The translations under genes and the position numbers were made by a program. From Phoronis australis (taxonomy: Eukaryota; Animalia; Phoronida), in NCBI GenBank assembly GCA_002633005.1, contig NMRA01000302.1:126180-190179 (forward strand): a stretch of 64,000 bases of DNA, in the 5' to 3' direction. Under the pieces are notes generated by a model, which was given only the letters and a program-made list of their open reading frames with translations, made no database searches and had not been told where the DNA came from. Positions within the stretch are counted from its first letter, which is position 1; every line of letters starts with the position of its first letter. Below, in pieces: positions 30,486 through 58,333 of the stretch.

Positions 30486-32273
30486 TATTGCCGAAATTCT
30501 TCAGGGCCGGGGTGGGGGCTGTGAGAGAGGGTGGTGAATAAATTATGCTGCACCATAAAACCGTGATGGATGTATAAGCAACATTATGGCAAGGGTATTT
30601 CTAGACGGCCTCTGAAAGGAATAAAAGAGGAAGGGGCTACCAGTTGTAAGACAAGAACTCCATTACACCATCAATTATACATGCATTGTTCTATTCCGAC
30701 CCGGTAATATCCCGGGTTGCGGTATCATGGGGTGAGGGTGAATTCCGTGTGGGCGTAGGATTTTCGAGATTTGGAAGTCGCCAGTATTTTCGCCCCGTTG
30801 AACCCCCCCCCCCTTTCATGATCGGTCGTCAATTGCTTTCCATAGATTTTTCTGTTGCCGTTTTCAGGGCCGGGTAGCTGGCAGTCAACTTTATGTGTGG
30901 CCGGGTGGCCAAGCGCCTCTGCTTTATACGTGTAAATGTTTGCATTTGGACGTAAATCAGTTTGCCATCTCAGTAATAAATTTAACCATAAATTGTTCAA
31001 CTATTCCTCGACAGTTAGAAAATGGCTTAGTCTTGTTGGGATTGGAAGGAAAATGTCAGACAGTAAGAATAGAAAACTGCTACGATTTGGCGACAGTTTA
31101 CCAGATACACGTAAGTGATCGTAGTAAAACTATATTTCACTGCAGGATATCAAACTATTTTACTATTTACGTCTAATTATTTCTCATTGTGGTAAGAGGT
31201 TTAAGATTTTCATTTCCTTATGCTTAGAGGAACACTCTGCCTTTTGTGGCCTTCGAAAAACAAAGTAATACGTCAAGTGGTGATATGTGTTGAAGGTGTT
31301 GTCAATAACGTTTTATGCTTAAATTTTATTTCACGCTACACTGATTTACAAAAGCACGTCACTGTCAAAAATAAAATTCTCTAAAACTTTAGTTCACACT
31401 AAAATATATTACTCAAAGACTGTGTTGCATAAAAAGTGACTTTTAAAATACATCAGCGGCATATGATGCGTGACGTTAAAGACACAGTTGAGGAAAAGAA
31501 CTGAGACGCACGATGACGTCCATGCACTCTTGCGTACAAAATTTGAAACCTATGTACTAAATTGGTTCCTACACATAATTTTAACGTAGCCGGGCCAGGA
31601 AAACCAATTCATTGTTTTAAAGCCCGATGCAGCACCATCTTTGTCTGTAAACCATCGTTTTGGTTAAAGTTTAGGGCATCTCTGCTTTTTATTGTTTAAT
31701 ACGGCGGGTTACTGTTCCTAATTAAGCACGATAACACTGAAGATCAAATGGAGTTCCTTCCTTCTTTCAAAACAAGATTCCGCGCCGCTAACTCGATTTA
31801 TTCCAGGTTGTAAGTGCGGATGGCTTGCTACTGTACATAGCGCTGCATAGGACTTAAAAATTCTATTGACAAATGCGATAAGTACGTGTAGCTAATCACA
31901 GACACGGGGCATCAATAAAAACCACAAGATAATTAATACAATGGTACAATGGCAAATATTAGCAAAATTTGGAATGGTTCTCCATAATTATACTCCCGCC
32001 TAAAACAAGCGGTCACTAAATATATTTACCACTAACAAGCAAGTGCACTAGAAATAGGAAGCAGTAAGACGTGGACAACAAAAACGACGCCAGAGGACAG
32101 CACAAAAACGACGTTTCGATACTAATCAAATATCATCATCAGACACAATATTAGACAGATAACACATCACAATGAATGGCCAAAAACCAATATTAAAAAG
32201 AAAACATCATATCGTTCACCCAATAGGATAATGATAAATAATTTGACAAAACGCTTGAGTTGTCTGTTTAAAG

Positions 32274-34742
32274 TTAACATCGCCTGTGATGCGCAATCTT
32301 AGTTGCTTCACAAGGGGGTTGCTTTCGAGCACCTGGGGTAGGCTCAACTATGGCTCGAAAAAGTTGAACAAGATATTCAAAAAATTCAGGCGAATCAATC
32401 GCAGTGTTTTGCCAGATATCATAGTGTGGGATGGGAGGGGACCCGGACAGGCCTCTTATTGAACCACATTCTAGAATATCAGCGTCTTCTACTACCGTAA
32501 AACTGCAAAAACCTCGTTTAACAACTGATTCACGAAGAAATTCCACATCAAACCGGAAGTTCTGTGACCATTGCGTTGAATCAGACAAAATAACGACTAA
32601 AAAATTGTCACTGCTGTCTGCTGCTTTTCCAAATTCATCATAAGGCAATGAACCTGGGCAAACAGCAGCAGGGTCGGCAACATAGGCATTCAAATCAAAA
32701 TAGTTCTCAAGCAGTTCTTGGAAGTATCTCAGATGAGTTGCATCGGACAGTTGTTCGCCACTAATGTACACGTCATACAGACTATGCCTACCATGACTCT
32801 CGAGGTTGCCAGCAGCGAAATATCCATAAGCTTTTTTGAAATGCTGTTTAGCTTCAGTAAACCGCTTTTCCACAAGAAATGCTGCAGCTGCTTTGATGGC
32901 AGTTTCTTTAAAGATTTCTCGGCTTTTGAGAACATTTGTTGCAAGTTCCGGAGGAATTTGCGCGTCAACAAAAAACAGTGCATCCGCATATCTACAGGCA
33001 CTTGCCAACGTTTTAAACTTTTCAAAACAATACTCCCAGTTACAAGGGTCCGATGCTATCTTATCATCAAGAAGCTCCAAAGATCTGCCATGTTTGTTTA
33101 TCAACCTACTAAAATAGCAAAATTCTAAACAAGATGAAACATCAGATGGATCCCCTTTAACTTTTCCATGTAGGATATCATAAAGTGTAATATGACATTC
33201 ACTTACAAATTCAAAAGGTACATTCATTGCAATACTAGCAGAATTTTCAATAGCTTGCAGAAAATATGACGTTGCCTTCTGAATTAGTACTTGTTTTTGG
33301 TCTGGGTGGTCCTCTGGGATGGTGTGGCTTTTATAAACATAACATTGTCCAATGAGTTCACAGGCAATCATTGCTTCTGCCAGTGACGAAGATTTCAAGT
33401 GAAGCACAGAACTGAAATAATTAATGGCCTCATCAGTTTGGCCAAGTTGTAAATGGACTCGTCCTTTGTGAATATATACCGCAGCTACATCACTTTTGCT
33501 GACGTCATAGGCCTTCCTATAATACTCTAATGCTTCTTTAAGTTCATCAATTCCTACATCACTAACTGATGTTGAAGCGTACGGTAACTGACTTTGAAGA
33601 TTTAAATGTACTTCAGTACTTATAAGTGAAAAATTACTAAAGACGTCTTCAACAAATCTAGTATTTGACAAGGTTTTGAAAGGGAATGTCAACTGAGGCT
33701 CGGTTTGGACATTTTCAATGGCTCCTGCCCGTTTTCTACTTTCTTCAACTTTATTTTGCCATTTTAAAACTTGGATGTCACCCAGATGCAAATAAATGAC
33801 AGTATTACCCTGTATCTCTTCTGCTTTCTTAAAATATTCTATAGCTTTATTAAAATTCCCTTTCTCTTTTTCGTATTTACCGCATTCTTGTAAAACAGTG
33901 CGATCTTCAGGTGCTAGTCTTATGGCTTCTCCAATACAATATTCTCTCACTTCATCAATAGAGCCCAATACTTGACTCAGTGAAAAGCTATTGACTAGTT
34001 CAATAGCACCACTAACATCCCTAAACTCAGTTGGCAAGGAATTGTAAAGCGCAAGGAACGACTGTAACTTTGTCCAAGCCTTTGCTTTCACTGCAGCGTG
34101 AGCTTTATCATGTCGAACAACCACAGAAAAAGCTTGCAGCGCCTCAACGAACAGTTCGTTTGCATCAAAGTCGCCAGGGTTTTCCAAATACCATTTTGAG
34201 GAAAGACATCTTTGCAGCACAAGAAAATAGCCGAATTGCCACAACCAATTGTCTTCATGTTGTTCGTCTATGACTTGCTTAAACCAGTATAAAGCCTCTC
34301 TGTGAAAGTGAGGCCCAAACCGAGAATAGCTGAACGCAATCTCGCTCTTTGCAGTTGCCAATTTGTACTTAAATCCATCATCATTCTCCATAGCGTCGAG
34401 TCGATTTAGTTCTTTTTCCCCATCGATTAAATTCTTATCATGAATAGCGAGATATACGAAGTTTGTAACAGCTACAATGTTCTCAGGATCGTTTTTTCTG
34501 ACACGTGCATTCAATTCTGAAGCCTTTTCAAAATTGCTTCTCTCAAAATACAAGTACGACAGGAGATTGTCATTCCGGTTGCCATTGTATGTTCGATGAT
34601 CGTTCAATTGCTCTTCCTTTACGGTTTGTATCACTTTTTTCACACGCATCGACCTTTCGTTCCCCTTCAGTTTCAACTGAAATGAGCTAGGAAATCTACT
34701 CAGACGCCTCTTTAAGTTCTCAATCTTGTTACCAGACTCCAT
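32274..34742 (-). CDS. Single-coding-exon IFIT/TTC22-like tetratricopeptide-repeat protein with C-terminal TIR-like domain (~822 aa from the Met at 34742; ORF open from 34943)
   Basis: Uninterrupted 889-codon ORF. TPR/IFIT-like segments: LSRFPSSFQLKL, NLLSYLYFERSNFEKA...DPENIVAVTN, SEIAFSYSRFG...ALYWFKQV and EAIRLAPEDRTVLQECGKYEKEKGNFNKAIEYFKKA. The C-terminal YDVYIS...CPG...FLVVILS...SQNFRFDVE follows the TIR betaA/BB-loop/betaC/alphaC pattern. Confidence 0.8.
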   Translation of the reverse strand: MESGNKIENLKRRLSRFPSSFQLKLKGNERSMRVKKVIQTVKEEQLNDHRTYNGNRNDNLLSYLYFERSNFEKASELNARVRKNDPENIVAVTNFVYLAIHDKNLIDGEKELNRLDAMENDDGFKYKLATAKSEIAFSYSRFGPHFHREALYWFKQVIDEQHEDNWLWQFGYFLVLQRCLSSKWYLENPGDFDANELFVEALQAFSVVVRHDKAHAAVKAKAWTKLQSFLALYNSLPTEFRDVSGAIELVNSFSLSQVLGSIDEVREYCIGEAIRLAPEDRTVLQECGKYEKEKGNFNKAIEYFKKAEEIQGNTVIYLHLGDIQVLKWQNKVEESRKRAGAIENVQTEPQLTFPFKTLSNTRFVEDVFSNFSLISTEVHLNLQSQLPYASTSVSDVGIDELKEALEYYRKAYDVSKSDVAAVYIHKGRVHLQLGQTDEAINYFSSVLHLKSSSLAEAMIACELIGQCYVYKSHTIPEDHPDQKQVLIQKATSYFLQAIENSASIAMNVPFEFVSECHITLYDILHGKVKGDPSDVSSCLEFCYFSRLINKHGRSLELLDDKIASDPCNWEYCFEKFKTLASACRYADALFFVDAQIPPELATNVLKSREIFKETAIKAAAAFLVEKRFTEAKQHFKKAYGYFAAGNLESHGRHSLYDVYISGEQLSDATHLRYFQELLENYFDLNAYVADPAAVCPGSLPYDEFGKAADSSDNFLVVILSDSTQWSQNFRFDVEFLRESVVKRGFCSFTVVEDADILECGSIRGLSGSPPIPHYDIWQNTAIDSPEFFEYLVQLFRAIVEPTPGARKQPPCEATKIAHHRRC

Positions 34743-36068
34743 AATACGAAAGGTCGTGTACAACTTTTCCAACTTGTTGCTTCCTACTTGACTGGAATCT
34801 TCCAAGAAAAAGACGTCACTGACGCAAAGGATTATGGGATAGCAATCCTCCAAAGCAGCACGGCTGGTAGGCAATGACCATCGCCTATGTTGGCCCGAAC
34901 CAGAGTATACTATCCCACAAATCTCTCGGGCATGCGCGCACATCAGTCCCTTTAAGAACTAGGTCAACGTTAGAGGGCAGTCACACAAGGAAGTTGAACA
35001 TTTGAAGTTAACTTGTGATGAATGAACTATGCAATTTACATAACGTAAAATTGCCGCGAGGACTTGACAGGGACTTCAGGGGTCACACACTCCACTGATT
35101 TATCCACATTATTTTGAAAACGCTTGGTCCAGTCACACATTGTGTGTCATAAAAGAGATAAGCATACCAAGTAGAACTACTCTCGTTTATCACATTGGTG
35201 TAGACTCACAGTTGAACTGCATGTGGTTTTCTGTAGTGAAGTACGGCGAATAGTGTCATCCTTAGGAAAGCGATGCAAGGTACCCAAAGCGCGTGTAAGA
35301 CGATAATGAGAACATCCTGGTACGCGGCAACAGCGTGGAATGTTGACTGACTCGTAAATAAAAGCAAACGACGACCAACTTATGTCAGCCGAGGTAGAAC
35401 AATTTGACTGAATTGACAGCTCTCACAGTCTGACGTGCTGTATGAACAGAAATTGGCGCAAAATTCTTGCCTCCCAAATCGTCACTTCCGGAGTAGAGGA
35501 CGAGAAATTAATTAAATTACGAAAAGCTGTAATTCAGTGAAAAATATGTCTGGGATACTCAACAGACCTTATTTTTGCTAAACGTGACATGAAAAAAGGT
35601 TGCCTTCGCCTTTAAAATCATGTCACAGTATATTTTACGGAGGGATGTGACCTTAAAGTTTGGTTCTAACCCGGCTTCAGTAAATGAAAGTTTAGGCCCT
35701 TCTACCAGGTACGTGCGGTAATTTTCTAAAAAGTATTCTCGTGTATTTGCGTGGCCACGTAGCAGTGTAGACCCGTGCATGTATATGTTATTACTTTTTT
35801 CATTGATTTTACAATAACTTATTAATGTTCTATGTTCACTGTAGCGCAACGTTATTTGAAATTCTTAGTAGAATGTTATATGCATGCATACAGGTGTACC
35901 TATACCTGTGAAATAAAATTAATGAAAAGTTTACGCCTTGTAAAAAACCCAGTCCAATACTTCGTGTTATCGACATCATACTGTGCGTTGTACAATGGTT
36001 CCGGTCTTGGAGGACTGTCCCACTTGTTAAATTTTCCCACCATCAAATTGTCCCCTTTTCACACCGTC

Positions 36069-36240
36069 ACGGCGAAATTGACGTTATGGCGGCTTTGTAC
36101 GTTTCCCACGCAACGTAAAGTCCTATTTTCCTGTTTGACTAAAAAGAAAAACGGCGAAATTGACGTCATGGCGGCTTTGTCATACGTCAGTTTCCCACGC
36201 AACGTAAAGTCCTATTTTCGTGTTTGACTTAAAAGAAAGA
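36069..36240. repeat. Tandem duplication of an ~80-bp unit
   Basis: ACGGCGAAATTGACGT.ATGGCGGCTTTGT...TTTCCCACGCAACGTAAAGTCCTATTTTC.TGTTTGACT.AAAAGAAA occurs twice. Confidence 0.85.
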
Positions 36241-39200
36241 GAAAACGGGACGTTGTTCATAGGTTTTGAGGTACATAAAATTAACCGGATTCGAAGAAAT
36301 TAAGTCCAAGGGGTGCTGTCGGGACGTACGTTATGGTGCCCTGTTGCGCCGATTACTGATTTCACCAGCCACACTCCGTTTTGGCATACACGCAGAAGTG
36401 CCGCTGCTTTACGTACAGTAGGTCTCGCATTTCAACTAGTTGACAAAATAATATTGTCTCTTTTGATATAAATATTGTTACTTTTACAGTCCACTTTCGT
36501 TAGAGTAACATAACAATTAGAATTATGTGTTCACTCTTGTTTATACGGTAACACACACTAGAGGCATCCGTATCGCTACTGTTTACATTCTGGAGAAATA
36601 CTTTACTTTATATCGAAATTTGTATGTCCTTCACTGCAACAAATGTTACGATCCATCCACAATATATTTAAATCTAAACTATGTTTGCGTATTTTTAGCC
36701 TGAATTTTACTCAAGAATAAAATTGGCACTGAAAAGCATAAAAACTCCAGTCATAAGTACATGGAAGATGTATAATTTCGAACTGAATGACTGCATGGCT
36801 AATTCTTGACAACGACTGCGACTAGGGAATTCTATTCTACTGAAAATCTGTCTTTATCCAGTATCAATCTTTTGAATAAAAAAAATTCCTTAATATTAAA
36901 AGGACGCTAAATCCTGTTTTGATGGTATCAACCAATCCTCGTTCTGTCACCTGCTAATGCATCATTGTCGCCAATTCTGCAAGCTAAAGGCACTGCACGA
37001 ATCGACTAAAAACTTGGTGGGTTTTTTCCCACGGTTGCCGTGTAATTCGCTAAAAGCGTAGGTCACGCTTGTCTGTTTAACAAACTTTTAAAGGAGTTTT
37101 CATTTTTTTCTCAAAACTTTTGATTGTTGTCTTGGGTTACAAATTATTTTGTTTTAGAGAAATGGATGGACTGGATGGGGAAGTCTTTTTTGTATCTGTT
37201 AAGGTTTGGTGTCCGTTACACAGGTTAATTAATTAACTAATTTTAGTTAATTATGGTTTAACTAATACGTTCTGCTATTTTTGGGGTTTGGTAAAAATAA
37301 AAACCCTGGATTCTTAGACCTTTCTAAATCTGTTATACAAAATAATGACATGCATGGATTTTGCGTTGGATTAGTCTTCCAGGCAACTTCTAGGCAACAC
37401 CCAGTCGTATAAAATTTCAAATGGTGACAAAAAAGATAATTACCCATCCTGTCGTCACTTTGTGCCGTAGTTTTCATGCTGGGTATGTGAACTCTTTCAA
37501 CCAATACTGCAAGTTCATTGATGAAATAAGATTACCATATGACAGGATAAAAAGACATTCCGGTGCGTTTTCTTGTGACTGGCGTAAGTTTAACGTTGTA
37601 CACCGTGTAATTGCTAGTTACTTGTTCATTTAAATAATCTTCATTACATTTCCGACCAATACCGTCATTTCACTTAAAGCCTCAGAACGAAAAAACAGGG
37701 CCATGAAATACAACACTGAGGCGTCTCAACTGACATTCATGTATTGTGTCTATGACTACTCAGTAGTCATCAGTCATGACGTATTGTAAAACTGCAAGTT
37801 CGTAACAGGGTTTGCCCGAAAATACAGGATGTAAGCTAACTCTTTGTAACATATTACCAGCTTAACTAGTATTCCATACCTTTCATACTTACAAATAAAG
37901 GTTGCGGATATACATGTCCTATGAAAACATTATTTATTTTCAAAGAAGGCGCAAGGTCGCGTTTCAGGTAGAAGATAACAACTACAGATCATGAGTACTT
38001 CGACTATAAAACAGTTTGGTGTGCTTCTTTTCAAACCTTATCAGTCAGGCTGCTGATCATTCCAAACACAAGCGTATGTAATGTATTTCCTGTGCTATGC
38101 TTTACCGTGTTGAAATCTTTTTACCTCTTATATTCCAATCCTTTTGAGGATTCATCGAAGGATTGTTAGTTGCGTATTTCCCTCCCTATTAATGCAATCC
38201 TGCCATCTGAGGAACATGTGAAACATCAACACTGACTAATTGCTGTTCCATGCCAATACAAAAATGGGAGGGGTCGGGCATCCAATATTTGAGAATAACA
38301 CCAACCCCTTATATGGTATCATGTTGACACAGAGAAAATAATAAAACATGGATATTCATTTTTTACTTTTACATGTTATATTTGTCAATTGGAGCTACTT
38401 ATTAAGAATCAATCATGTACATGCCAAGTTCTCTTATGATTAATGTGTTTTTATACAGTCACCCTGAAGAGTGTTTTTTTGTTTGGATGGCACTACTCTA
38501 AAGCTCTCTAATTTGCCACGAAGTGAAATTTATTTATTTTGCTCAAGGCTGGAGGCTGCCCAAATTCTAGAAAAAGGCATACCTGTCTGTGCCAAATGCA
38601 AGAATCGCAAGAAAGACAACAGTGAAATTAACCACGTCCCAAATTCTGGAATTATGCGGAATATTTGTCCCAAATTCTAGAGACTGTTTCAAATCAGAGA
38701 ATTTCTACCGTACATATTTTTGGCACCCTAATAAAGTGTATTACATGAAATATCCCTTAAAGGTCAAAATCTTACCCTTATAATAGGAGGATTTAGGGGG
38801 GGGGCAGGGGCCCCGCCCCCCTCCAAAATGAAACAGCAACAGCGTGAGGAAATATTGAGTCCAGAAGCTAGGACCGGTATAGGGCTCAGACGTGGATACA
38901 CGGTCCTGTTTTTTTTTAGTCCACAGAAGGTTTACATCCTTGGCCCAAGCAACTTTCCGGCTGCCTGTGCACTTACAAACGAGTTGCCCAATTCCCCGAG
39001 GATGTTGGTATCCTTATGGTATCCTAGATACACCAATGCTTAACGTGTCACGCACAAAACGATACTCAAGGTTCTGGCAGCCGCTGCCTCCTCCCAAACA
39101 CAATACATTGAAGATGTCCCAAAGTTCAGTGACTGCAATTCACTTAGACATATCTCTATCATTTATCTTCTCTAGACTCCTTTATTCAAAATTGAACATG

Positions 39201-53749: not shown

Positions 53750-55255
53750 TTTTTATGCGCCCACATATGTGGACGCATTATGCCGTCATCTCCGTCCGTC
53801 CGGCGTCCGCTGCTTTATCTCCAAAATCCTTTGACATACGGTCATGAAATTTGGCACGTATCTTCCATTCATGAATGAGACGGCATGTGCGAACTTTTGG
53901 ACGGATCCGACTACCGGTGTGCCCCCTAGTGGCAATTTTAGTTTTTTTACACTTACCTTTGTATCTTCAAAAGTCCTGAACGGATTTTTATGAAATTTGG
54001 TATATAGGCACCTATTAGTGAGATGACGCTATCCTTCTGTTTTCAGATGGATTCGACATAGTTTGCGCCACCTAGTGGCCATTTTTAGTGTTTTCGAGTC
54101 TGTTTTTGTGTGTCCACCCCTCTATCAACCAAACCGCTCGAAGGATGATTGTGAAAATTAGCATGTATATGCTTACTATGTAGAGGACGGTTGACGATGA
54201 TTTTTAGACGATTTGGACTACTGTGGCACCTCCTAGTGGCAGTTTTTTTTTGCGCCTATGGCTGTATCTCCTAAACCGTTCGCAGGATCTTTACGAAATT
54301 TAATATGTGTATTTATATTATGTTAACAACAGACGATGACAACTTTTGGACGGATCCGCCTACCAGTGTGCCCCCTAGTGGCAATTTTATCTTTTTACGT
54401 TTACCTCTGTATCTTCACAAGTCCTTAACGGATTTTCATGAAATTTGGTATGTAGGCACCTATTAGTGAGATGACGCTATCCTACTGTTTTCAGATGGAT
54501 TCGACGTAGTTTGCGCCACCTAGTGGCCATTTTTACTGTTTTCGAGTCTGTATTTTTGCGTCCACCCCTCTATCAACCAAACCGCTCAAAGGATGATTGT
54601 GAAAATTGGCGTGTATGTGCTTACTATAAGGAAGACAGCTGACAATGATTTTCAGACGATTTGGACTACTGTGGCGCCTCCTAGTGGCAGTTTTGTTTTT
54701 TTGCGCCCATGGCTGTATCTCCCAAACCGTTTGCAGGATCTTTACTAAATTTAGCAAGTGTATTTATGTGATGTTGACAACGGACGATGACGACTTTAGG
54801 ATGATTCTGATTACCGGTATGCCTCTAGTGGCAATTTTAGTATTTGCCTCTAGTGGCAATTTTAGTATTTTACATTGACCTCTGTATTTTCATAGGTCTT
54901 CAGGTGTATACTTTGTGTTACTTCGTGACTATGAAGGAAAAGTTCCAAGTAGAAATTTGTTTCTGGCATTCTAATGCTGTGCTAATCTCGCATGTTGGTA
55001 AATTTGTTTTTAATTCTATATTCCTGTGGTGCTTTAAGCAACTGATGTATAGGATGTGCTTGTATTATGAAGATCACTCACATTTTGCCCCTAGCCTATT
55101 GAGGAGACAATGACCATGCCTTTCCATTTTGTAAAGTACAACATACTACATATATGCCCTCTACTGGCCACTTTATGGTACCAATAAACAACCCTAGAAG
55201 GATACCGTATACGGTGCATTTGTGGGCGCATTTCAACGCTCTGCGTTGCTCTTGT
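53750..55255 (+). mobile_element. Non-autonomous Helentron-type (HINE/DINE-1-like) element ~75 nt after the CDC20 stop, with ~448-bp internal tandem units made of ~150-bp subunits
   Basis: The 5' end TTTTATGCGCCCACATATGTGGACGCAT contains a subTIR plus partial inverted repeat, followed by a CCGTCCGTCC microsatellite. The 3' end has GTGGGCGCAT, the stem-loop CAACGC-TCT-GCGTTG and CTCTTGT. Segment 53899-54346 repeats at 54347-54800. Confidence 0.75.
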
Positions 55256-57136
55256 GTAATTTGTTGTTGATACTGTCGTAGTTCACCTGAATCACCCAGG
55301 ATGGATTTATATTAAGCTGTAGTTCAGCAGGAATTAGCCAAATTGCAAAGTGCATTGAATTCAAGTTTTGTAATAATTCAGTGCATTTTGCATGTATGCA
55401 TCCATACATATAGTCTGTGCAGAACTACTGTTGTTATGCACATTGCCTTGCATGTTATAATCTTGTGCTAATTTCGATGGCTAGTGAAAAGTTTCGACTT
55501 TTTGTCGTATTTGTATTTCCAGTATTGATATAGACAATTATTGAATAGTTTTTTTCTTGGAAAATTGTCGTTTGTGAGCATGTGACTGAGTGTAGAAGTC
55601 TGATTAGCCAAATCAATCATGTGTGGCATTGGGCTGCAAATGGGCTAAATAAATAGCACTTTCGCCCCCCTAGATTTTGGTGTGTACGGAATTTGCATCC
55701 AGTCGAGAGGTCTCTTTCACTGAAGGGCTTGTGTCATTTTTTGATAGTTTTTGCTAGTCAGTAAAAATCAGGTCTAAAAGCCATAATCAAGATTTTTGGA
55801 CTTTTGTCTGCAGTGACTAGTTTGTTTGGTTTATCCCTTGACATAACTTGAAATGACAGTGTTATCCATTTTTCCTGAAGAGGCCCACATTGTTTCGTCA
55901 CGAGTTCTGTTGTTTTTGAATTGTACAACTTGTAAGTTGTATGTGGATTTTCTGTACGAGTCATATAATGAATGACATTTTGAAATAAAACCGTTCTTTT
56001 ATTTCATTTATTTTTGTGGCTTTAGTACTGCTGGTCATAGTTATGGAAACAGGAAAGGGCAAATCTGGCATAAATATTGACTATATGATCGGATACACAA
56101 TGGTTATACCTTGAATCGTCATTAAACTGGGTGCTGTTTATTTTTACTCGAGGTTGCTTTTGTTAGTTTATCTGTCCTATTCCAATCTGGTTTCCCCCCA
56201 GGGAACAACACAATGCAGGCCCTTGAGTCTTTCCACTCCGCGTCCACCACGGGCACCAACACTAATTGTAGTAATGTTTCTTATACATGTAGGATTGAGT
56301 CATTGAAAACTCGTGTACGTGTGAGAAATAACTTAAAAGTCGTGTCCTGGATCTCCAGTCATCTTTCAGAATATGAACACGGTCCATAAAATGTGCAATT
56401 CTTTTGAAAACAACCTTTCATGGGCATTGTCAGAAATATGACAACTTACATGTACCCCAGGTATGACTCTTTAATTGCTTTCCAAAAACTAAAAAATAGC
56501 GAACTTTATCGCTTGTGACAGACTCACATCGTGCGCTTACCTCATGTCACTCCTATTCCAAAACAATGAGGTAAAATGTTCTGACTTCCAAAATAAGCTC
56601 GTAGTAAGCCGTAAATGTACATGTAGTACACGTAGATACAATGAGGCGGGGTTTGGATTTGTTTTGTCAGTTAATGCAGTAAGTACCGAAGGTAACGCGC
56701 TGAGCTCGCCCCATGCCATGAGGAGTTACGCGAAAGTCAACGAAAGCCAGCAAGTGACGGTTTCATTTAACCATGCACCCGTCGAGACAAAAGTTTCATG
56801 TATCCTTTTGGTGCACATGTGAGCTAAGGTAATCATTTCATCTTTTGGCAACAAATCTCTCGCTGCCTCGTAATCGTGTGAACTTCATTTACGCTGAGTA
56901 CTGCGTGTCGCCGGTATAGCTCTTCGTTTGCTCTTCGACCAGCGCTTGAATACATGTGTGTATGCGCCCGTATTTAAGAACTTTGTTCCAATTGCTGCTT
57001 TGAAAGCAATTCAGTCATTCTGTCGTGTGTTTATGCGTTAATGATGACGCAGACGACGTTTTCTGTCTACTTTTAAGACCACATATCTGTCATTCCAGAA
57101 AAAATAGTCAATTACAAAAATTGTGAACAATTTTCG

Positions 57137-58333
57137 ATGGCACGGATTTTTAATTGCCAAACGAAAGACTTTTTGTTTCACTATAAAGGTTTTGATGAAG
57201 ACTTTGTACGCTTTAAATTCCCGTTACATGAAGATAAATGTCTTGCTTACCGCGCCTTAGTTGCACTGTATGAACTAGCGTGGCTTCTTGTGGATATGAT
57301 ATTCCTTCCTAGATCAGAACAGCAGACGACGGCGAAATATTTCATACACTTGATGGGTTGGCATTACACAGGTGTTGTTTTATACTATCTCGTTGCATTT
57401 GCTACGCATTTATACGTCGTGAAGATTAAGCAGCGAACAGATGTATGCCGCGTGAATGATACTGATATTTCAGAACAGTCGTCTGCGTTAAATCGACCCA
57501 TCAGCTGGTATCTGCGGTTACGTTGGATGTTGTTCAACGTAAATATTAATATTCTCATGGCTTCCGTGTTCTTTTGGGTTGTGGTAAAAGACACCTATAT
57601 ATTTACCGACTATCATCGTAATCTCGTCACGCCACTCCTAGCGATGGTGGAGATCTATATCGTCAATCATCCAATATACGTTTTCCACTGCTGGATGATG
57701 CAGTTAGTTTTGGTGGTTTACACGATTTTTGCGTTTATTTACTTATACAGTGGAGGCGTTGATCAGTTTGGTCTCAAAAAAGCCTCCGTTAGTTTCTATC
57801 TGGACAATCCCATGTGGATTGTAGGCATAATGGCCGCTCTCTGTCTAATTGGTGTGCCGGTAAATCATTTGATCTGTTCTTTGCTATATAACATTCGCCA
57901 GCAGTATTTCTCTAACGGAGAATCTATCCTTCGTCGACCTGATAAGATACCTCAGGCTTCTGGTCATGAGCCGCAATCAAACAGTCTAAACGGCTGGATG
58001 ACCGAGGAAACTCAAGGTAATAAACCTTTCCATGAAATAAAAAGGGAAGCATATTCCCACGACGCTGCTGGGGTATCACAAGGAATAAAGAAACGCCAAC
58101 AACAAAGACCGGGTGCCCATAAGTTGAAGGCTAAAGAAACGGACGTGACTATTTTGAGTGAGTATATTGTTCGAGACAAGGCTAGTCTGATGAGCAACAA
58201 CAGGGCTAACTTGGAGAGCGATTCAACTTTCAGTGACGCGGGTTATTCGATCGGCGATCTGTCGCCGTCGTCATCTAATCAAATCCACCAGTTAAACCCA
58301 CAGAACACACGAGTGGATGTCGTCAGTCAATAA
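57137..58333 (+). CDS. Intronless rolling-stone-like (FAR-17a/AIG1/ADTRP-related) multipass membrane protein, 398 aa, with a long disordered C-terminal tail
   Basis: About 6 hydrophobic segments. The family pattern is YRALVALY...KYFIHLMGW...LRWMLFNV...VFFW...EIYIVNHPIYVFH...YTIFAFIYLYSGGVD. Several conserved positions are diverged. Confidence 0.72.
   Translation: MARIFNCQTKDFLFHYKGFDEDFVRFKFPLHEDKCLAYRALVALYELAWLLVDMIFLPRSEQQTTAKYFIHLMGWHYTGVVLYYLVAFATHLYVVKIKQRTDVCRVNDTDISEQSSALNRPISWYLRLRWMLFNVNINILMASVFFWVVVKDTYIFTDYHRNLVTPLLAMVEIYIVNHPIYVFHCWMMQLVLVVYTIFAFIYLYSGGVDQFGLKKASVSFYLDNPMWIVGIMAALCLIGVPVNHLICSLLYNIRQQYFSNGESILRRPDKIPQASGHEPQSNSLNGWMTEETQGNKPFHEIKREAYSHDAAGVSQGIKKRQQQRPGAHKLKAKETDVTILSEYIVRDKASLMSNNRANLESDSTFSDAGYSIGDLSPSSSNQIHQLNPQNTRVDVVSQ

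Follow-up and report, generated by a model that had tools for sequence, protein, structure and literature searches.

The RNA-binding IFIT proteins are the closest described relatives of the gene discussed here. Positions K151, R187, K259 and R262 are required for RNA binding by IFIT1 and IFIT5, according to the accessible portions of PMC3950709 and PMC13197388. In the accessible text of a 2013 survey, IFITs are confined to jawed vertebrates, their origin is tied to that group together with interferon, and candidates from acorn worms, lancelets and lampreys are rejected as homologs (PMC3688568). Immune-gene surveys in oyster (PMC4346834) and Aplysia (PMC9334734) name a ‘TIR-TPR’ class, with both domains in one protein; their accessible portions neither connect it with IFITs nor state in what order its domains come or what it does. 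TIR domains may themselves be scaffolds or enzymes, a distinction drawn in the part of PMC8204762 available to us. We analysed a 64,000-nucleotide window of the Phoronis australis genome (contig NMRA01000302.1, positions 126,180 to 190,179), which carries on its minus strand a gene for an 822-residue protein joining an IFIT-fold module of tetratricopeptide repeats (TPRs) to a C-terminal TIR domain. This fusion, in a wide uncharacterised bilaterian family, is what is new here. A literature search, with most subscription papers outside its scope, yielded no paper describing a fusion of IFIT and TIR, and none is described in the accessible parts of PMC8195603 and PMC6723221.

The TPR part has an IFIT/TTC22-type fold and is kin to the IFITs over the whole IFIT length, matching the fold of their three-subdomain TPR clamp. 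A family profile built from 84 sequences (A1) matched IFIT1 (E 1.5e-35) and IFIT5 (E 2.9e-33) as the best natural proteins in the PDB, behind one engineered consensus TPR and ahead of OGT, the next natural non-IFIT protein, at 4.5e-19. The match to IFIT1 is collinear, columns 4-183 falling on chain residues 2-189 and columns 251-558 on 232-469. Single amphioxus and lamprey members likewise matched IFIT5 as their first natural protein. With the alignment-based AlphaFold model (pLDDT 85.5, pTM 0.82), IFIT5 and IFIT1 took Foldseek ranks 1-7 at target TM scores of 0.62-0.73, against at most 0.34 among the non-IFIT matches listed. VIA superposed the model on IFIT5 with Z 25.7 (456 of 476 residues, root-mean-square deviation (rmsd) 4.8), while the best non-IFIT protein reached Z 20.2 over 285 residues. 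The first-pass annotation of this DNA had noticed an IFIT/TTC22-type helical pattern over some 330 residues. Profile, Foldseek, ESM Atlas and VIA bear out the pattern, with IFIT5/IFIT1 ranked first by Foldseek, but by profile alignment and VIA the region runs for about 580 residues and has an insert mid-way.

At its C-terminus the protein carries a TIR domain that belongs with animal TIRs of the TLR/MyD88/TIR-STING type. Strands and helices alternate over residues 656-799 of the AlphaFold model, the five strands forming a parallel sheet, and model residues 654-800 superpose on the TIR domain of IL-1RAcPb with Z 12.5 (rmsd 2.9, 140 of 146 residues). A 13-sequence C-terminal profile (A2) found oyster TIR-STING first (5e-9), followed by TLR15, TLR6, IL-1RAcP and MyD88, with bacterial NAD+-cleaving (NADase) TIRs ranking lower, at 0.003-0.009. 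Model, superposition and family profile thus support the TIR-like module that had been proposed from about 32777. Another C-terminal profile, covering the final 190 residues in 84 relatives and built with the Phoronis protein excluded, gave residues 675-798 a score of 24.5 bits, and none of 1000 shuffles exceeded 5.9; the two-part build of TPR and TIR is therefore common to the family. Pfam TIR_2 matches six of the 13 sequences in A2, and the amphioxus member P0064 passes its curated cut-off. Two lamprey members have no Pfam TIR match, so the lamprey TIR is assigned through the family profile. At the BB-loop, 51 of 77 relatives have Gly and 36 of 77 have Pro. An AAA+ ATPase likeness of the C-terminus (single-sequence model, pLDDT 41, Z below 6) was noise, the alignment-based model being a TIR. 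A bacterial origin of the domain, raised by its Atlas neighbours, is disfavoured, as animal TIRs come first by profile. Prediction of a TIR homodimer scored 0.00, which we count neither for nor against.

To judge from sequence comparison, the gene is not a one-off: it belongs, as a divergent member, to an uncharacterised family that is widespread among bilaterians. A full-library search with the 822-residue protein gave 357 matches at E up to 0.001; the best 150 of these were examined, and the family counts that follow rest on them. Nineteen were discarded manually as internal matches to generic TPRs, leaving 131; identity among members is about 20%. At least 650 residues are present in 99 of the 131, and 77 of these 99 reach at least 15 bits with the TIR-region profile (12 of the 77 built that profile), as do none of the 32 shorter members. 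Many of the 26 short or TIR-less members inspected stop mid-repeat or within the TIR, and many look like cut gene models. Thirty members were looked up and the source was named for 22, comprising 18 molluscs, two hemichordates and two lampreys; two amphioxus and three more lamprey proteins also belong. The earlier label of an ‘invertebrate’ receptor is therefore too narrow for the family, lampreys being included. Nearly all members are annotated as ‘uncharacterized’, one Biomphalaria cluster member having been automatically named IFIT5. A word-based homolog search found nothing with the single protein and only generic TPR proteins (18 rows) with the alignment. A term search of the five files of an oyster poly(I:C) supplement (PMC7064767) turned up no row under the name IFIT or TTC22 and none that was tied to the family.

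In trees of 90 rows the gastropod and bivalve expansions are separate from each other, and there is lineage-specific expansion in molluscs. IQ-TREE, run on 37 of the 90 rows with midpoint rooting only, places the Phoronis protein in an 8-row set (98/99) whose other rows are hemichordate, amphioxus, lamprey and two more. Some members have unusual builds. P0036, from the mussel Sinanodonta, has RING, coiled-coil and fn3 regions (TRIM-like) ahead of its IFIT-TIR unit, a build that could reflect either a genuine fusion or the merging of gene models, and P0002 from Batillaria carries a tandem pair of IFIT-TIR units in a single 1941-residue protein. Lampreys have several paralogs (P0057, P0195, P0196, P0197 and P0071), with a divergent C-terminal domain that Pfam TIR misses.

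The features of the Phoronis gene are as follows, with residues counted from Met1 at 34943, so that the likely start is Met68.

31322..32273, minus strand: 3' untranslated region of about 950 nt (RNA contig, ending just past AATAAA at 31330)
32274..34742, minus strand: coding sequence, 822 residues from Met68 to the stop (frame, RNA, Kozak context, relatives), no intron seen
34743..34943, minus strand: in-frame upstream extension M1-I67, likely untranslated (repeat at 34868-34905; possible splice acceptor)
32991..34739, minus strand: IFIT-like TPR module, residues 69-651, collinear with the whole of IFIT1/IFIT5 (profile, model)
33867..34334, minus strand: predicted RNA-channel residues F204, R208, H214, R245, K356 and K359, with Q352 for R255 (profile mapping)
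33570..33704, minus strand: low-confidence insert, residues 414-458 (model confidence; profile gap near IFIT1 residue 308)
32793..32990, minus strand: extra linker helices, residues 652-717, between IFIT module and TIR (model)
32343..32783, minus strand: TIR domain, residues 721-867, five strands (model, profile)
32657-32652, minus strand: BB-loop Pro-Gly, residues 763-764 (alignment)
32549-32547, minus strand: Asp799 at the catalytic-Glu position (alignment)

The open reading frame (ORF) is a genuine, transcribed gene. It runs from stop to stop over 32274-34958 on the minus strand, giving 894 codons, whereas the longest ORF over 30 shuffles of the window had 204. A single DNA contig spans 30803-35072 with 10 letter differences, one in-frame 3-nt insertion at 34924 and no frameshift; it crosses the whole gene, ruling out an assembly artefact. 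Stranded reads from three raw-read RNA runs (X6, X7 and X8), with the strand calibrated on spliced reads from neighbouring genes, cover the minus strand over 31300-34716. Depth in X8 is continuous at 3-12 in every bin, and X6 and X7 are patchy at 0-6.6. RNA contigs extend to 31322 at the 3' end and to 34775 at the 5' end. No splice joints from RNA reads are listed below 35295, so none falls in the coding region, which lies in one exon in an IFIT-like layout. A small 5' exon is possible, with a candidate acceptor CAG at 34794-34792 in the upstream extension, seen in the sequence only.

The first-pass annotation had described one uninterrupted coding exon among multi-exon housekeeping genes, and on this ORF, DNA contig, RNA without joints and neighbours agree. 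All the motifs it quoted were located, YDVYIS beginning at 32777. Its coding start at 34943 has to be moved: translation likely starts at Met68, at 34742, because this codon has a strong Kozak context, relatives start there, an RNA contig stops at 34775 and a repeat lies in the upstream extension. The family alignment column at Met68 holds Met in 79 of 83 members. Read-through from the upstream peroxidase gene is ruled out by bins without RNA at 35788-36451 and 37116-37779, and these RNA-free gaps make the IFIT-TIR gene a separate transcription unit. Read-through or intron signal from CFAP119 is unlikely, X8 depth being 4-10 on the gene and 0-1 on CFAP119.

Three of the positions that bind RNA in the IFITs are the most conserved basic positions of the family. 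IFIT1 residues, with their roles taken from PMC3950709 and PMC13197388, were assigned manually to profile columns with the help of the profile alignment, which made F204 equivalent to W147, R208 to K151, H214 to Y157, R245 to R187, K356 to K259, K359 to R262 and Q352 to R255, with Thr107 at the position of IFIT1 Arg38 and IFIT5 Thr37. Over the first 320 profile columns, the fraction of lysine or arginine is highest at the equivalents of R187 (0.94), R262 (0.90) and K151 (0.87), which take ranks 1-3; the K259 equivalent is 6th and the R38 equivalent 17th. Tested at K151, R187, R255, K259 and R262, the Phoronis protein is basic at four of five by profile alignment. The residues of a predicted basic RNA channel thus appear mostly present, as R208, R245, K356 and K359, with R255 lost. 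The insert varies across the family from 1 to 431 residues, with a median of 99 (profile columns 316-392), and in the Phoronis protein it has 71 residues and is not basic. At least two RG pairs lie within the insert in 19 of 83 members, and these could add RNA contacts.

From these sequence and model data we propose that the protein is a cytosolic sensor of RNA 5' ends that signals through a TIR domain acting as a likely non-enzymatic scaffold, a proposal that we judge to be evenly balanced. The TPR channel would clamp the 5' end of foreign RNA, most likely an uncapped triphosphate. By analogy with IFIT5 and IFIT1, RNA-end binding of this kind is fairly probable, and Thr107 would lean slightly towards the uncapped 5'-triphosphate. 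Closure on RNA, or crowding on RNAs, would then bring TIR domains together, and the assembled TIRs would recruit MyD88- or TICAM-like adaptors to drive NF-kB/IRF signalling or cell death; the chain as a whole, through each of these steps, could as easily be wrong as right. The one-protein sensor-effector of the first-pass annotation is thus supported as an architecture of TPR and TIR, and the RNA-sensing function assigned to it stays conjectural.

A number of observations weigh against an RNA-sensing IFIT-TIR receptor in Phoronis. The R255 equivalent is basic in 0.06 of the family and is Gln here, the R263 equivalent is not basic, all four basic residues are present in only 47 of 83 members, and the H289 equivalent, His in 72 of 83, is Leu. 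The later TPR and TIR parts of the protein are acidic. Its pairwise match to IFITs is weak (IFIT3 only, E 0.005), and it has no Pfam TIR match. In a wide VIA search generic TPR proteins (Z 19.2) scored above IFIT2 (Z 17.1), and generic TPRs fill the list, with full-length IFIT1/5 not among the 50 matches listed. TTC22 clusters in the ESM Atlas (0.96) are level with IFIT clusters (0.95). The protein sits on a long branch (1.51), and none of the other 36 IQ-TREE rows is more than 24% identical to it. Promoter motif scans found no site resembling NF-kB or an interferon-stimulated response element (ISRE) close upstream of the gene; the ISRE-like GAAANNGAAA occurs 5 times in the window, where chance alone would give 5.7 occurrences, and the nearest is at 36235.

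There are other explanations to weigh. The family might simply sequester foreign RNA and block translation as IFITs do, the TIR serving self-association or localisation or being vestigial. No TIR column reaches 90% and the channel residues are more conserved, 22 of the 99 long members fall below 15 bits with the TIR profile, and jawed-vertebrate IFITs function without a TIR. We nonetheless regard sequestration as unlikely, for the TIR is found in 77 of the 99 long members, across molluscs, hemichordates, amphioxus and, more weakly, lampreys, its BB-loop Gly is largely present, and several of the members below the threshold break off within the TIR and resemble cut gene models. The tie in the Atlas means that IFIT kinship need not imply antiviral function, and a TTC22-like non-immune scaffold, with cellular RNA, a protein or a phosphopeptide as ligand and IFIT likeness by ancestry only, would also suit a gene that stands alone among housekeeping genes, has no paralog in the window and shows low expression in each of the three RNA runs. 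An animal TIR, expansion in molluscs, low identity among members and a hypervariable insert fit immune receptors, and the most conserved basic residues are the IFIT phosphate-binding sites, which together make such a scaffold improbable.

It is also conceivable that the family consists of RNA-sensing receptors and that the divergent Phoronis copy has been retargeted or is losing function. Its branch length and low identity would agree with this, as would its departures from consensus at the H289 equivalent and at the conserved Pro column at 824; of the 11 read variants checked, six change a residue and five are silent. Either course is distinctly improbable, for the frame of 822 codons is intact, the transcript is full-length, the fold is predicted with confidence and the four core basic residues are all retained. 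The last alternative is an NAD+-cleaving TIR, like SARM1 or bacterial TIR-STING, that RNA would switch on. The helix-C Glu is catalytic in NADase TIRs. Alignment confirms the Asp previously noted at that position (Asp799), with Glu801 two residues later, where 20 of 77 relatives have Glu; helix C aligns loosely, and bacterial TIR clusters are Atlas neighbours at 0.90-0.92. At the column aligned with the WCxxE Glu, all 77 relatives lack Glu and Asp and most have Leu, Tyr or Phe, and the closest solved TIRs are scaffolds of the TLR/IL-1R/MyD88 type. NAD cleavage is therefore unlikely, even with so loose an alignment of helix C, and the case for it is weaker than the ‘uncertain’ of the first-pass annotation; an RNA-switched enzyme seems to us very remote. 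We keep to the proposed RNA-end sensor with a scaffold TIR.

The gene is located between the glutathione peroxidase gene and CFAP119, and its multi-exon neighbours in the window are eIF3i, CFAP119/CLAMP, glutathione peroxidase, CDC20/Fizzy and WDR55. Just upstream, at 35039-35615 and 36905-37100, are high-copy repeats, where DNA depth climbs to about 90,000 and single-copy sequence has about 45. A decayed THAP-like frame (35180-35422; Pfam THAP E 0.03) lies within them, and in them the promoter region probably holds what is left of a transposon. Elsewhere in the window a 418-codon plus-strand ORF (57077-58333) has several hydrophobic stretches, no PDB match and a weak Pfam match; it is presumably similar to rolling-stone-type membrane proteins. 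A tandemly repeated element occurs as an inverted pair at 1170-2380 and 53750-54898, about 75% identical.

An IFIT fold with a predicted RNA channel and a TIR domain in acorn worms, amphioxus, lampreys and molluscs would shift the origin of IFITs to the bilaterian ancestor, in place of the jawed-vertebrate origin of the 2013 survey. As similar fusions occur in all four groups, IFITs likely began as signalling sensors before interferon. It is possible, although we hold this tentatively, that IFIT-TIR proteins are an undescribed bilaterian class of cytosolic receptors for the 5' ends of non-self RNA that predates interferon and is ancestral, through loss of the TIR, to IFITs and TTC22; jawed-vertebrate IFITs, and probably TTC22 too, would then be its TIR-less descendants. 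The family would also offer a candidate route for sensing viral RNA ends in animals that have no interferon, farmed molluscs included.

Set beside known systems, the Phoronis protein shares something with each. Vertebrate TTC22, compared by Atlas clusters only, has a feature score of 0.96 for residues 68-410; its clusters have 496-514 residues and no TIR family listed, unlike the Phoronis protein. The TIRs of TLR, MyD88 and IL-1R are near by profile and have the BB-loop Pro-Gly in common with the Phoronis TIR, which lacks their WxxxE Glu. Some family members may already be counted as ‘TIR-TPR’, because P0064 passes the Pfam TIR_2 cut-off, but the Phoronis protein and most members differ from Pfam-detectable TIR proteins in being missed by Pfam TIR. 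Oyster TIR-STING (PDB 6wt6/6wt7) is the closest solved TIR by profile and follows a similar logic, a cytosolic nucleotide-binding sensor joined to a TIR of animal origin, for which the accessible part of PMC10732462 gives no clear role. The Phoronis protein differs in having an IFIT-type TPR clamp as its sensor, a TIR placed at the C-terminus and no WxxxE Glu. With IFIT5 and IFIT1 (PDB 4hot, 4hor, 5w5h, 5udi and 6c6k) it shares the same whole-length collinear TPR architecture, basic residues at the K151, R187, K259 and R262 equivalents, an aromatic at the W147 equivalent and, going by the available text of PMC3688568, the layout in one large coding exon. What sets it apart from them is the added material, namely the insert of variable length, the linker helices and the TIR at the C-terminus, together with 15-17% identity, R255 and R263 not being kept, no ISRE close upstream and an occurrence in animals without interferon; with 822 residues and a TIR, against about 470-480 residues for the TPR-only IFITs, it is not a strict IFIT. 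If such a class did give rise to IFITs and TTC22, a receptor that signalled became an effector induced by interferon once the TIR was lost, and IFIT-TIR proteins, which survive in lampreys, parallel RIG-I but are built from TPRs and a TIR domain.

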